A stretch of DNA of 64,000 nt from the NCBI RefSeq assembly GCF_901765095.1, contig NC_044044.1:26760132-26824131 (forward strand), read 5' to 3'. This stretch comes from Microcaecilia unicolor (lineage: Eukaryota). The translations under genes and the position numbers were made by a program. Below the pieces are notes generated by a model. That model searched no databases. It saw only the letters and a list, made by a program, of their open reading frames with translations, and was not told the origin of the DNA. Shown one piece after another: positions 24,403 to 41,743 of this stretch (positions are counted from its first letter, which is position 1; each line of letters starts with the position of its first letter).

Positions 24403-25914
24403 ATGGATTCCTCTGGTACTGAGGTGGTTTCTGTGGGCAGATTTACTGTCATCCAGGTTGGCAGTGAGAACAGCTGGACCAGTGTCGTTTCTCTGTCTGG
24501 AAGCACCTGTAATAGTTCCATCTCTGGGCATTACCTAGAAACGATAGACTGTATACCCAACTGTTCTGTCCTGAACTGTGCCACCCCTCCTGTCCTCATC
24601 CAGAGGGATCTGGCTGTACTAGAGAGGACACATGAGGAAGAAATAAATACTACACTAGAAGCCATCAACAATAATGTGAATGCGTTTGGCAAAGCGTCTC
24701 CAGCAGATACACCTAACAGTCATGGCCAACCTCCAGCATATGAAAATTGCTTTAGTCAGACATTGACTTGTACACCCAACTGCAATCCATTGTTGTCAGA
24801 CTCAAAAGTTAACTGCAGTTGCCAAACTCTAGCCTGCTCCTCCATTGGTGACAGGCTGACTCCTATCAGTTCTTCCATCGGGTCAACTCCTACCTGCCCT
24901 TTCACCAATAATGGGCCGACTCCTAACTGTCTCTCCAGTAGTGATGAGTTGGCTCCTACCTGTCCCTCCACCAGTGCTTGGCCGACTCCAACTTGCCCCT
25001 CCACCAGTCATAGGCTAACTCCTACCTGCTCCTCCGCCAGCGATAGACCAACTTCTCTCAGCTCCTTCACAAGTGATGGCCACTCCTTCACTAGTGACGT
25101 GCTGACACCTACCTGTTCATTCACCAGTGATGGACTGGCTCCTAACTGCTCCTTCGCCAGTGATGGGCCTACTCCTACCTGCACCAGTGGTGAGATGGCT
25201 CCTATCTGCTCTTTCACCAGAGATAGACTGGATCAATCCTCTGCCTCTGCCAGTGATGGGCCATCTCCTACCTGTTCTTTCACCACTGATGGGATGTCTC
25301 TAGCCAGCTGCTCCACCAGAGATGAGCCAGCCCCAGCCTTTGCCTTGACCAGTGATAGGTTGGCTCCAACCTGTTCGTTCACTAGTGATGGCCAGGCTTC
25401 AGTCTGCTCCTTCATCGGAAATGGGTTGGCACCATCCTACACCTCCACCATTGATGGACTGGCTCCAGCTTGTTCCTGCACCAGTGATGGTTTGGCTCCA
25501 GCCTATTTTTCCAGCACTAGCAACGGGCCTGTGCCAGTTTACCTGTCTGCCTATGAGTACCCAATAATGGAAGTCCAGACAGAAGAAGTTCATGAAGGCC
25601 TGGATCACCTGAACGATTCGATACATACCTTGAGTGATGGACTCTATATGCGTTCCAGCATCTCCACCAGGGAAGAGGAGTTGGACAGCTGCAGAGGGGA
25701 GCTAGTACGAGAAAGCACAGTAGGGAGAGAGTCGGTTTCTCTCAGCAGTGGGACCTGCACCGGTGCTTACACCCTGTCTTCCACGAAGGGGACAGCATAC
25801 ATTTATGACACTTTGGACACTACACCACACTTTGAATTCTACACCAACACATTTGTGCCAGGCAAGTTGAGACGCAACCGGCCCTCATTGGATGCCCTTC
25901 GTAATGCATTGGTG
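24403..25914 (+). CDS. SLC12A3: SLC12A3-like exon 1 (504 codons): N-terminal cytoplasmic domain with a large internal repeat expansion ([18 protein letters not shown]...RNALV)
   Basis: ATG at 24403 (ORF-track frame 24367..25932) and donor GTG|gtaagt at 25915. The start carries a GRFTV (RFxV) motif and the end carries [21 protein letters not shown], which resembles the NCC regulatory segment TFGYNTIDVVPTYEHYAN. About 15 tandem 11-aa units of the [11 protein letters not shown] type lie between them. Confidence 0.8.
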
Positions 25915-40900: not shown

Positions 40901-41743
40901 CTTTGGCCTGCTCGTAATCCTGACACGCAAATCTCTTCAGCCTGTGGCTTCTACGCCCAGAGACTGGAGCCACAAATCCTACAGACACGGGAAGAAACCA
41001 GGATTGGGGTCACCAACACACCCTCGTTTTAAGGTCGGACTCGCTGCGGGTGTCTCGCAACATCATTTAATGTTGTTCCTAATCTAGTCTCAGCTCATGT
41101 GCTCAAATCCTCTTTGGTCCTCTTGCAGCCTGAAAATCTTCGAGGATATGGTGACGCCGTACCGGCTCAACGATGAACTGATGGACAGAGAGAGAACTCA
41201 GGGGCTGAAAATGACCAGTCCCTGGAGGATTTCCAACCAGGACCTCAGGACCCACAGCAAGAAGGTAAAGTTGCAGCACCGGACGGGTAAGCAGCTCCGG
41301 TCTTCTCCTTCTTCCACCCAATCTATGACTTCTGTCCCTGGTTCTACTTTTTCCTCTAGCAGAGACTGCTCCAGACTCGTCACTAGCACGGGGGCGATAG
41401 TTTCTAATCTGCCTCTGCTACATTTCCATTGCAGTCTGAACGCCAGGTGAGGCTGAATGAAATCCTCCATGAGAATTCTCAGGACGCCGCCGTCATCGTC
41501 ATGTAAGGAAACTTATATCCCCCATTCCTCCCCCTCATTCAACTCTCCCCGGGAGGGGCAGTCAGCTTTAACTCGGCTTTCTATCTCACTTTTCCTCCTT
41601 CCAGGAGCCTTCCAGTCATTAAGGATGCCTGCCCTAGCTCCCTCTACATGGCGTGGCTAGAAACGCTGTCCTATGATCTCAGCCCACCTATAGTCTTCAT
41701 CCGTGGGAACCAGGAGGACACACTGACCGTTTACTGTCAATAG
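24403..41743 (+). CDS. SLC12A3: Gene span of an electroneutral Na-Cl cotransporter of the SLC12A3/NCC type (thiazide-sensitive family), 26 coding exons, 1431-aa model
   Basis: Exon peptides match NCC/NKCC signature blocks ([75 protein letters not shown]...[14 protein letters not shown]). All 25 introns are GT-AG with compatible phases, and the CDS totals 4296 nt, a multiple of three. The call as SLC12A3 rather than an NCC-like paralogue (for example the slc12a10 type) is uncertain. Confidence 0.9.
26345..26491 (+). CDS. SLC12A3: SLC12A3-like exon 2 ([49 protein letters not shown])
   Basis: Acceptor ctccacag|GAT and donor CTC|gtaggt. The RFGW-x-GV block is conserved before TM1 in NCC. Confidence 0.85.
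26926..27001 (+). CDS. SLC12A3: SLC12A3-like exon 3 ([25 protein letters not shown])
   Basis: Acceptor tcacccag|ATT and donor ATAG|gtatga; TM1 signature. Confidence 0.9.
27472..27567 (+). CDS. SLC12A3: SLC12A3-like exon 4 ([32 protein letters not shown])
   Basis: Acceptor ctgcag|GA and donor GCAG|gtgagt; TM2 signature. Confidence 0.9.
27889..28028 (+). CDS. SLC12A3: SLC12A3-like exon 5 ([47 protein letters not shown])
   Basis: Acceptor tcttctag|GG and donor ATA|gtaggt; the peptide is nearly identical to the human NCC block. Confidence 0.9.
28147..28257 (+). CDS. SLC12A3: SLC12A3-like exon 6 ([37 protein letters not shown])
   Basis: Acceptor atatag|GAG and donor AAG|gtatgg. Confidence 0.9.
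28664..28775 (+). CDS. SLC12A3: SLC12A3-like exon 7 ([37 protein letters not shown])
   Basis: Acceptor tcttccag|GCT and donor CAAG|gtgagt. Confidence 0.9.
29217..29341 (+). CDS. SLC12A3: SLC12A3-like exon 8 ([42 protein letters not shown])
   Basis: Acceptor atatag|GA and donor AAG|gtataa. Confidence 0.9.
29661..29745 (+). CDS. SLC12A3: SLC12A3-like exon 9 ([28 protein letters not shown])
   Basis: Acceptor ctatgcag|GAT and donor ATTG|gtgaga. Confidence 0.9.
30101..30258 (+). CDS. SLC12A3: SLC12A3-like exon 10, extracellular loop with N-glycosylation sites ([53 protein letters not shown])
   Basis: Acceptor ctcctcag|GA and donor CAG|gtgagc; Cys pattern and NxS/T motifs as in the large NCC loop. 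Confidence 0.9.
30486..30593 (+). CDS. SLC12A3: SLC12A3-like exon 11 ([36 protein letters not shown])
   Basis: Acceptor ctctcccag|ACC and donor CAG|gtgagc. Confidence 0.9.
31300..31690. repeat. Long foldback (inverted repeat, arms about 130 bp, loop about 30 bp) ending in a G homopolymer of about 38 nt, within SLC12A3-like intron 11
   Basis: ccagccggtcttcttcagcgccagtctccagcgccttcgctgatctgtttctg...cagaaacagatcagcgaaggcgctggagaccggcgctgaagaagaccggctgg is a perfect palindrome, with further arm pairing in ccaccaggtacctttgctggtgg / gccagcaaaggtacctggtggcgg. A G run lies at 31623-31660. Confidence 0.85.
31812..31935 (+). CDS. SLC12A3: SLC12A3-like exon 12 ([41 protein letters not shown])
   Basis: Acceptor ttccacag|TGT and donor ATCG|gtgagt. 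Confidence 0.9.
32437..32538 (+). CDS. SLC12A3: SLC12A3-like exon 13 ([34 protein letters not shown])
   Basis: Acceptor gtttgcag|CT and donor CCAG|gtgggt. Confidence 0.9.
33102..33257 (+). CDS. SLC12A3: SLC12A3-like exon 14 ([52 protein letters not shown])
   Basis: Acceptor ctcctacag|GC and donor CCTG|gtaaga. Confidence 0.9.
33894..33993 (+). CDS. SLC12A3: SLC12A3-like exon 15 ([33 protein letters not shown])
   Basis: Acceptor tctccttag|AT and donor TTCCG|gtaatg. Confidence 0.9.
34201..34312 (+). CDS. SLC12A3: SLC12A3-like exon 16 ([38 protein letters not shown])
   Basis: Acceptor ttctttgcag|C and donor ACG|gtgagt. Confidence 0.9.
34413..34535 (+). CDS. SLC12A3: SLC12A3-like exon 17 ([41 protein letters not shown])
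   Basis: Acceptor tttgtgtcag|CAC and donor CAG|gtaagt. Confidence 0.9.
34994..35100 (+). CDS. SLC12A3: SLC12A3-like exon 18 ([35 protein letters not shown])
   Basis: Acceptor ttctcctcag|GTC and donor ATTCG|gtgagt. Confidence 0.9.
35532..35614 (+). CDS. SLC12A3: SLC12A3-like exon 19 ([28 protein letters not shown])
   Basis: Acceptor cttcccaaag|T and donor CATG|gtgagt. Confidence 0.85.
35934..36017 (+). CDS. SLC12A3: SLC12A3-like exon 20 ([28 protein letters not shown])
   Basis: Acceptor ggattttgcag|TG and donor GTGG|gtaagg; the phase links exon 19 to exon 21 (G+AG=Glu). Confidence 0.8.
36686..36778 (+). CDS. SLC12A3: SLC12A3-like exon 21 ([31 protein letters not shown])
   Basis: Acceptor cctttttccag|AG and donor GGAG|gtgagt; the QGKKTIDxYWLxDDGG block is conserved in NCC. 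Confidence 0.9.
37840..38400 (-). mobile_element. CR1-like LINE 3' fragment (same family) in SLC12A3-like intron 21
   Basis: Sequence colinear with 6820-7700 (ccatactgggtcagaccaatggt...cagtggccaatc...cctcagctgtctcttttcgaagctgaagagccctaacc). Confidence 0.65.
38535..38646 (+). CDS. SLC12A3: SLC12A3-like exon 22 ([37 protein letters not shown])
   Basis: Acceptor tcctcctag|GT and donor AAGGA|gtaagt. Confidence 0.9.
39370..39545 (-). mobile_element. tRNA-derived SINE copy (minus orientation) in an SLC12A3-like intron
   Basis: Reverse-complement form: cctggggcaatggagggttaagtgacttggccaaagtcacaaagagcttcagtgagatttgaacccagttccccaggttgtcaggccactacactagccatcc. Confidence 0.7.
39704..39790 (+). CDS. SLC12A3: SLC12A3-like exon 23 ([29 protein letters not shown])
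   Basis: Acceptor ctctctgcag|G and donor AAAAA|gtaaga. Confidence 0.9.
40120..40520. repeat. Satellite-like array, roughly 60-bp unit (ggaatgttgctactctttgagattctgcttggaatcttctcactctttggggttctacat), about 6 copies, in SLC12A3-like intron 23
   Basis: Regular periodicity; the unit is related to the SINE tail motif gaatgttgctactctttgagattctacatgg. The ORFs 40182-40579 are artefacts. Confidence 0.85.
41129..41264 (+). CDS. SLC12A3: SLC12A3-like exon 24 ([46 protein letters not shown])
   Basis: Acceptor tcctcttgcag|C and donor AAG|gtaaag. Confidence 0.9.
41435..41502 (+). CDS. SLC12A3: SLC12A3-like exon 25 ([22 protein letters not shown])
   Basis: Acceptor ttccattgcag|TCT and donor GTCAT|gtaagg. 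Confidence 0.9.
41605..41743 (+). CDS. SLC12A3: SLC12A3-like terminal coding exon 26 with stop ([46 protein letters not shown])
   Basis: Acceptor tcctccttccag|G and TAG at 41741-41743; the C-terminal SLC12 signature is present. Confidence 0.9.

Follow-up and report, generated by a model that had tools for sequence, protein, structure and literature searches.

The stretch of DNA analysed here, a window of 64,000 nt from the caecilian Microcaecilia unicolor, carries a gene of the Na-Cl cotransporter (NCC) type at positions 24403-41743 of the plus strand. Spliced mapping, the matching accession, the match to a solved structure in the PDB, Pfam domains and the position in a tree were used to type this gene. 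It is most probably the M. unicolor orthologue of SLC12A10 (also called NCC2 or NCC-beta, and NCC3 in amphibians and squamates), standing at the locus that this gene usually occupies in tetrapods. SLC12A10 would be the second, ancient Na-Cl cotransporter paralogue of vertebrates, situated between KLHL33 and OSGEP/APEX1 in a region matching human 14q11.2. The human arrangement would look different because SLC12A10 has been lost or pseudogenised there, SLC12A3 alone being retained on 16q13, and the NCC gene would never have moved in the caecilian lineage.

Gene structure and coding capacity

The gene model was obtained by exact spliced mapping of the RefSeq protein XP_030042516.1 onto the window. 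It consists of 26 coding exons, running from the start codon to the stop (1438 codons plus stop), and matches XP_030042516.1 (1438 aa) residue for residue. When this protein is compared with the window by tblastn, exon 1 and most of the other exons are recovered at 100% identity, and the best database match to a query in which the conserved exons were roughly joined is the NCBI entry 'solute carrier family 12 member 3 [Microcaecilia unicolor]', of 1438 aa. The NCC-type gene is real, complete and already annotated in RefSeq. The preliminary description, made from the sequence alone, had placed a complete 26-exon NCC-type gene between KLHL33 (minus strand) and APEX1 (minus strand), and exact spliced mapping, Pfam and tblastn agree with it; the NCC-type product that it predicted is also recovered, at a length exceeding the proposed 1431 aa by 7 residues.

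Exon 1 (24403-25914, 1512 nt, aa 1-504) is matched by the protein at 100% and holds the whole N-terminal extension together with the conserved AA_permease_N segment. Spliced mapping places the following exons, all on the plus strand, at 26345-26491 (exon 2), 26926-27001 (exon 3), 27472-27567 (exon 4), 27889-28028 (exon 5), 28147-28257 (exon 6), 28664-28775 (exon 7), 29217-29341 (exon 8), 29661-29745 (exon 9), 30101-30258 (exon 10), 30486-30593 (exon 11), 31812-31935 (exon 12), 32437-32538 (exon 13), 33102-33257 (exon 14), 33894-33993 (exon 15), 34201-34345 (exon 16), 34425-34535 (exon 17), 34995-35101 (exon 18), 35532-35614 (exon 19), 35934-36017 (exon 20), 36686-36778 (exon 21), 38535-38646 (exon 22), 39704-39790 (exon 23), 41129-41264 (exon 24), 41435-41502 (exon 25) and 41605-41743 (exon 26, with the stop codon). 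The introns are GT-AG in 24 cases and GC-AG in one, the sole non-GT donor being that of exon 16 (at 34345/34346).

The gene contains no internal stops. Of the 252 alignment columns in which SLC12A3 and NKCC-like proteins never vary, its protein keeps 242, the other members of its clade keeping 231-247. Judged from these features, the gene looks functional. A pseudogene is ruled out by the intact open reading frame (ORF), the canonical splice sites and the retained invariant columns.

Protein type and clade membership

Pfam scans of the protein detect AA_permease (PF00324, 3.6e-119), SLC12 (PF03522, 5e-129) and AA_permease_N (PF08403, 1.1e-09). Among solved structures, human NCC is the best match, with 1516 bits against 1124 bits for NKCC1; residues 465-1438 of the protein align with residues 55-1020 of human NCC. 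The product would be a cation-chloride cotransporter (CCC) of the APC fold, with 12 transmembrane segments and a cytosolic SLC12 C-terminal domain, carrying, to judge from homology, Na+ and Cl- into epithelial cells, and with a caecilian cytosolic N-terminus enlarged by about 410-510 residues, an array of 11-residue repeats included.

Clade membership was assessed with a neighbour-joining (NJ) tree of 961 columns, rooted with NKCC-like representatives and tested with 200 bootstraps scored as bipartitions; its distance correction is simple, which leaves it open to rate artefacts. The protein falls inside the NCC group, from which the NKCC-like outgroup is separated at 100%. Within the NCC group, one clade, supported at 100%, gathers the SLC12A3 proteins of mammals, birds, reptiles, a frog, salamanders, the caecilians Rhinatrema and Geotrypetes, and bichir/reedfish, and excludes the window protein, which is therefore not an SLC12A3 orthologue. 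The window protein belongs instead to a second clade, also at 100%, of tetrapod proteins labelled 'SLC12A3-like', together with those of Geotrypetes, Rhinatrema, salamanders, frogs, turtles, squamates and crocodilians. In this '3-like' clade, it is nested among the caecilians, which themselves fall within the amphibians (96%). Residues that are fixed differently between SLC12A3 and '3-like' proteins are found in 2 columns only, too few to be of diagnostic use.

The comparison with known systems is in agreement with this placement. The protein is 69-83% identical to the members of the SLC12A10/NCC2/NCC3 clade over the conserved 907 aa and shares with them the same domain set and the same flanking genes; it differs from them by its length (1438 aa, most members having about 1000-1175 aa), which reflects a much longer N-terminus made in part of 11-residue repeats. 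SLC12A3, the thiazide-sensitive NCC of the distal convoluted tubule, has the same architecture and 66-68% identity over the conserved region, and shares the N-terminal GRFT and a Thr equivalent to human T60; it belongs, however, to another orthogroup and another locus, and the equivalent of its T55 is an Ala in the window protein. SLC12A1 and SLC12A2 (NKCC2 and NKCC1) are of the same Na-dependent CCC subfamily and fold, but they form a clear outgroup and score lower in the structure search (1124 versus 1516 bits); NKCC-like representatives are about 48-51% identical to the Rhinatrema '3-like' orthologue.

Rhinatrema and Geotrypetes each have two NCC genes, one 'SLC12A3' (XP_033797254.1 in Geotrypetes) and one 'SLC12A3-like'. 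For M. unicolor, no true SLC12A3 was found among the best 120 matches to a Pleurodeles SLC12A3 query, and the protein cluster of Geotrypetes SLC12A3 holds Geotrypetes isoforms only, with no Microcaecilia member. That a full-length M. unicolor SLC12A3 does not surface could reflect a loss, an annotation or assembly gap being more likely.

Synteny of the locus in tetrapods

In the window, Pfam scans and tblastn give the gene order KLHL33(-), NCC(+), APEX1(-), OSGEP(+), PIP4P1(-). The NCC gene is found in a corresponding position at the other tetrapod loci compared: NCC(+)-APEX1(-)-OSGEP(+) in Xenopus tropicalis (the chromosome 1 gene) and in Rhinatrema, TEP1(-)-KLHL33(-)-NCC(+)-OSGEP(-)-APEX1(+) in the loggerhead turtle (Caretta), NCC(+)-OSGEP(-) in the leopard gecko (Eublepharis) and PARP(+)-KLHL33(-)-NCC(+)-OSGEP(-)-APEX1(+) in Alligator. 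By tblastn, the APEX1 of the window is 80-90% identical to the neighbouring gene in Xenopus, Rhinatrema and alligator, its OSGEP is 85-98% identical to the OSGEP neighbours at other tetrapod loci, and its KLHL33 is 46-50% identical to the neighbour gene of turtle and alligator. The position of the NCC gene between KLHL33 and OSGEP/APEX1 is thus conserved at six tetrapod loci, window included, and the presence of the same gene in the same slot in caecilians, Xenopus, turtle, gecko and alligator shows this synteny to be ancestral for tetrapods.

The location is not that of SLC12A3. Human SLC12A3 lies on 16q13 beside HERPUD1 and NUP93, while KLHL33, OSGEP, APEX1 and PIP4P1 make up the 14q11.2 region. 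The true SLC12A3 of Xenopus is on a different chromosome from the chromosome 1 gene and adjoins a gene for a 370-aa ubiquitin-domain protein, consistent with HERPUD1; the window gene has KLHL33, APEX1, OSGEP and PIP4P1 as neighbours, and not the HERPUD1/NUP93 surroundings.

One rearrangement is observed at the locus. The head-to-head APEX1-OSGEP pair (43823-56454 in the window) is inverted in place between amphibians (window, Rhinatrema and Xenopus) and amniotes (turtle, gecko and alligator); this inversion is the only rearrangement there, and it is common to caecilians and Xenopus. The orientation of the pair was compared at loci L002 (23010-31803) and L011 of alligator (26616-34898), where the orientation of the flanking KLHL33 and NCC genes is kept. 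The human order is TEP1(-), KLHL33(-), OSGEP(-), APEX1(+), PIP4P1(-), which is the turtle and alligator order minus the NCC gene. PIP4P1(-) would likewise have kept its side and strand relative to amniotes, a point that rests on this human order.

These results bear on several statements of the preliminary description. KLHL33 had been said to lie on the opposite side and strand compared with human; checked against turtle and alligator, KLHL33(-) has kept both, and the statement arose because it was anchored on the inverted APEX1-OSGEP pair. A local rearrangement had been offered as an explanation for the NCC gene being here, but the sole inversion, that of APEX1-OSGEP, leaves the presence of the gene unexplained. 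The other explanation offered, that of a lineage-specific paralogue akin to the slc12a10 of teleosts and not the orthologue of SLC12A3, holds for the paralogue, as the tree shows, and fails for the lineage, orthologues being present at the same slot in caecilian, frog, turtle, gecko and alligator. Finally, ancestral synteny had been coupled with a single SLC12A3 orthologue and a gene order common to non-mammalian tetrapods; the order is common and the synteny ancestral, whereas the gene is not a single SLC12A3 orthologue.

Relation to fish slc12a10 and alternative readings

The identity of the tetrapod '3-like' gene with SLC12A10 has a published basis. NCC3 was defined by Hartmann in 2014 in amphibians and squamates, and described as lost in birds and mammals, NCC2 being the gene of teleosts (PMC4301019). 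Later, synteny and phylogeny led to SLC12A10/NCC2 being recognised in ray-finned fishes, coelacanths, amphibians, non-avian reptiles, platypus and horse, its fate in birds and most mammals being deletion or pseudogenisation (PMC11381001, section 4.1; PMC11145369); in various mammals, an SLC12A10 pseudogene is reported at the same chromosomal locus (PMC11145369). The arrangement KLHL33-[NCC]-OSGEP/APEX1 is thus an ordinary one, and NCC3 has already been equated with SLC12A10/NCC2 in the literature. Examples of SLC12A10/NCC2 are the X. tropicalis chromosome 1 gene, zebrafish slc12a10.2 and horse SLC12A10; the grouping of the tetrapod genes with fish slc12a10 is not recovered in our NJ tree. In its abstract, Motoshima (2023) reportedly identifies 'ncc3' outright as the slc12a10 orthologue.

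Fish loci were also compared. The slc12a10-like genes of chondrosteans (A. ruthenus and both Polyodon copies) show PNP on their upstream side and a small RING gene on their downstream side; the second paddlefish copy has a PARP14-like gene alongside. PNP is a neighbour of PIP4P1 in the human 14q11.2 block, and its presence beside the chondrostean genes weakly supports a link to the tetrapod locus. The RING-finger gene beside the paddlefish and sterlet slc12a10-like genes encodes 226-227 aa (loci L005, 1-1388 and 31080-34634; L007, 32274-36324; L008, 44141-48431) and is possibly CCNB1IP1. The slc12a10-like locus of Acipenser sinensis contains a fused 1542-aa model and no informative neighbour, and for the Polypterus protein considered in the same comparison there is no gene record. 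Among the best 120 matches of a further protein search, no teleost, coelacanth, horse or platypus SLC12A10 was present, gar being represented solely by an nr entry that has no contig, and a full-text literature search linking slc12a10 to apex1, osgep, klhl33 or tmem55b returned no relevant paper.

Several points weigh against identifying the window gene with SLC12A10. In the NJ tree, SLC12A3 and the tetrapod '3-like' clade are joined at 91%, and the slc12a10-type genes of non-teleost fishes (reedfish 'slc12a10.3', bichir and paddlefish) form a third group outside both; as '3-like' and fish slc12a10 are left unjoined, phylogeny here does not show orthology to fish slc12a10. None of APEX1, OSGEP and KLHL33 is found within 10 kb of the A. 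ruthenus and two Polyodon slc12a10-like loci. The synteny evidence of Motoshima (2023) is taken second-hand from later summaries. XP_030042516.1 bears the name 'SLC12A3' in NCBI RefSeq (nr and UniRef have 'SLC12A3-like'). The orthology of the window gene to fish slc12a10 is one that we infer mainly from published synteny and phylogeny.

The alternative that survives best is that the tetrapod gene is a third ancient paralogue, 'NCC3' in the sense of Hartmann, present only in amphibians and non-avian reptiles, distinct from fish slc12a10/NCC2 and accompanied by reciprocal losses. The position of the fish slc12a10-like genes outside the 91% group, the chondrostean loci devoid of APEX1, OSGEP and KLHL33 within 10 kb, and the older literature, which keeps NCC2 and NCC3 apart (PMC4301019), all speak for it. 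We nevertheless find it unlikely. Two ancestral genes are the more parsimonious account, as a single SLC12A3 is accompanied by a single slc12a10-type gene in bichir/reedfish and by a single '3-like' gene in tetrapods. In addition, the later synteny-based work equates NCC2 and NCC3 (PMC11381001, section 4.1; PMC11145369), and rate artefacts easily arise in NJ trees whose distance correction is simple. The paddlefish slc12a10-like gene also adjoins PNP, a member of the human 14q11.2 block.

It is highly improbable that we have here the true SLC12A3 orthologue, brought next to KLHL33 and APEX1 by some rearrangement within the caecilians. The NCBI name of XP_030042516.1, 'solute carrier family 12 member 3', would fit such a move, as would the failure of any other Microcaecilia NCC to appear among the best 120 matches to salamander SLC12A3. 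This reading is refuted by tree and synteny: the protein is split from the SLC12A3 clade at 100% bootstrap, Rhinatrema and Geotrypetes carry both genes, the same gene stands at the same locus in frog, turtle, gecko and alligator, and UniRef and nr use the label 'SLC12A3-like'. A recent caecilian- or amphibian-specific duplicate of SLC12A3 inserted at the locus, to which the lineage-specific length of the N-terminal repeat extension might point, has equally little chance of being correct and is refuted by reptile synteny. The tree unites the amphibian genes with the reptile ones found at this locus in a single clade, supported at 100%, and the split from SLC12A3 predates the divergence of ray-finned and lobe-finned fishes, bichir SLC12A3 lying inside the SLC12A3 clade.

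N-terminal extension

The feature that sets the caecilian protein apart is its N-terminus. Of the 504 residues encoded by exon 1, the first 464 (24403-25794) precede the region that can be aligned with human NCC, whose own N-terminus is exceeded by about 410 residues. It contains a degenerate 11-residue (33-nt) repeat at about aa 141-395 (24823-25587, plus strand), rich in Ser, Thr, Pro and Cys, which was detected with Tandem Repeats Finder (period 33/66) and by alignment with the Rhinatrema ORF. Its consensus is close to (S/T)TSDGLAP(T/A)C(S/Y), and its identity at lag 11 is 0.33 in Microcaecilia and 0.50 in Rhinatrema.

The extension is common to caecilians. The RefSeq '3-like' model of Rhinatrema bivittatum (1021 aa) begins at an internal Met, and the same frame is open for 517 codons further upstream (8450-10000 of the Rhinatrema locus, L010), in a stretch where the 11-aa repeat is present in 21 copies or more; the RefSeq model is probably truncated at its N-terminus, about 510 codons being left out. 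The '3-like' protein of Geotrypetes (1320 aa) also has an N-terminal extension. Between Microcaecilia and Rhinatrema, the ratio of nonsynonymous to synonymous substitution rates (dN/dS) reaches about 0.58 in the extension, against 0.13 in the conserved segment next to it. This ratio, together with the open frames, indicates that the extension is a fast-evolving yet maintained coding region common to caecilians. That exon 1 is a mis-annotated non-coding repeat is ruled out by the conserved start, by the long open frame (504 codons in Microcaecilia, 598 codons in Rhinatrema) and by the dN/dS value. In frogs and a newt, the extensions are shorter or of another kind and have the motif VxEALxHLNQSIxAFSxGL in common.

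Putative regulatory sites and transport

Near the N-terminal end of the protein, the residues RFTV (aa 13-16; 24439-24450, plus strand), identified by N-terminus comparison, fit the RFxV/I pattern, whose role in the docking of SPAK/OSR1 is established for NCC and NKCC; GRFT is found at the N-terminus of most of the full-length NCC-type proteins compared. At the other end of the extension, alignment to human NCC places T470 (codon at 25810-25812, plus strand) opposite the regulatory phospho-acceptor T60, whose phosphorylation in human NCC has a described role (PMC11381001, section 4.7.1.1). Ala465 aligns with human T55 (25795-25812 corresponding to aa 465-470). The N-termini of frog orthologues suggest that a T55 equivalent is missing there too. 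As the T55 equivalent is an Ala in the window protein and apparently absent in frogs, the cluster of phospho-regulatory sites may not be the same as in SLC12A3.

The RFTV motif and the Thr equivalent to T60 suggest a control by WNK-SPAK/OSR1, and Na+-coupled entry of Cl- is the activity expected of the protein from its homologues; transport activity, regulation and expression of the gene are what we infer from such comparisons. An SLC12A10 isoform has been described as thiazide-insensitive and apparently electrogenic (PMC11381001, section 4.1). As for the extension, we see an even chance that it is a translated cytosolic segment of about 410-510 residues, with its STSDGLAPxC-like repeats lying between RFTV and the phospho-acceptor region, which might serve the transporter as a regulatory or scaffolding module specific to the lineage.

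Neighbouring genes and repeats in the window

KLHL33 (2073-6554, minus strand) is upstream of the NCC gene and divergent from it, and was recognised by its Pfam domains (PF21536 BTB_KLHL33, BACK, BTB and Kelch); its span is approximate, being drawn from three long ORFs (2073-2633, 4571-5512 and 5934-6554). APEX1 (43823 to about 46111, minus strand; Exo_endo_phos and tblastn) is convergent with the NCC gene, with its last exon at 43823-44368 and an approximate 5' limit. OSGEP (47913-56454, plus strand; TsaD and tblastn) is head-to-head with APEX1. The last three coding exons of PIP4P1 (TMEM55B) are at 61048-62965 (minus strand), the remainder lying toward or beyond the right end of the window; for this gene, a tblastn match to a human query served as a lead only, and the identity comes from Pfam Tmemb_55A on the window translation.

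High-scoring tandem arrays with periods of 45-296 bp are found at 1489-1967, 3612-4083, 11446-12071, 13010-13282 and 22639-22880. They are located in the introns or flanks of KLHL33 and in the 18-kb intergenic region between KLHL33 and the NCC gene, and give rise to long spurious ORFs. A 30-bp minisatellite unit (ATGGAATCTTGCTACTCTTTGGGATTCTAC and its reverse complement) is present in NCC intron 23 (40118-40507) and in an intron of the neighbouring OSGEP (55321-55584 and 55998-56116), the two genes carrying it in opposite orientation. The unit probably belongs to a dispersed repeat. An Rfam scan of the whole window detected zero families.

Significance

The finding is mainly a correction: what appeared to be a synteny anomaly is most probably the normal position of SLC12A10 in tetrapods, odd only from a human-centred view, the gene having been lost there. 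The new points are minor, namely the repeat-bearing N-terminus and the annotation problems. Among the latter, NCBI also names the '3-like'-clade genes of alligator and gharial 'solute carrier family 12 member 3', the alligator gene sitting, like that of the window, at the KLHL33-OSGEP/APEX1 locus. The RefSeq label 'SLC12A3' on the Microcaecilia, alligator and gharial genes misleads orthology-based analyses, and the naming of this paralogue is not consistent across RefSeq. The repeat-bearing N-terminus, for its part, offers a small lead for studies of the regulation of CCCs.

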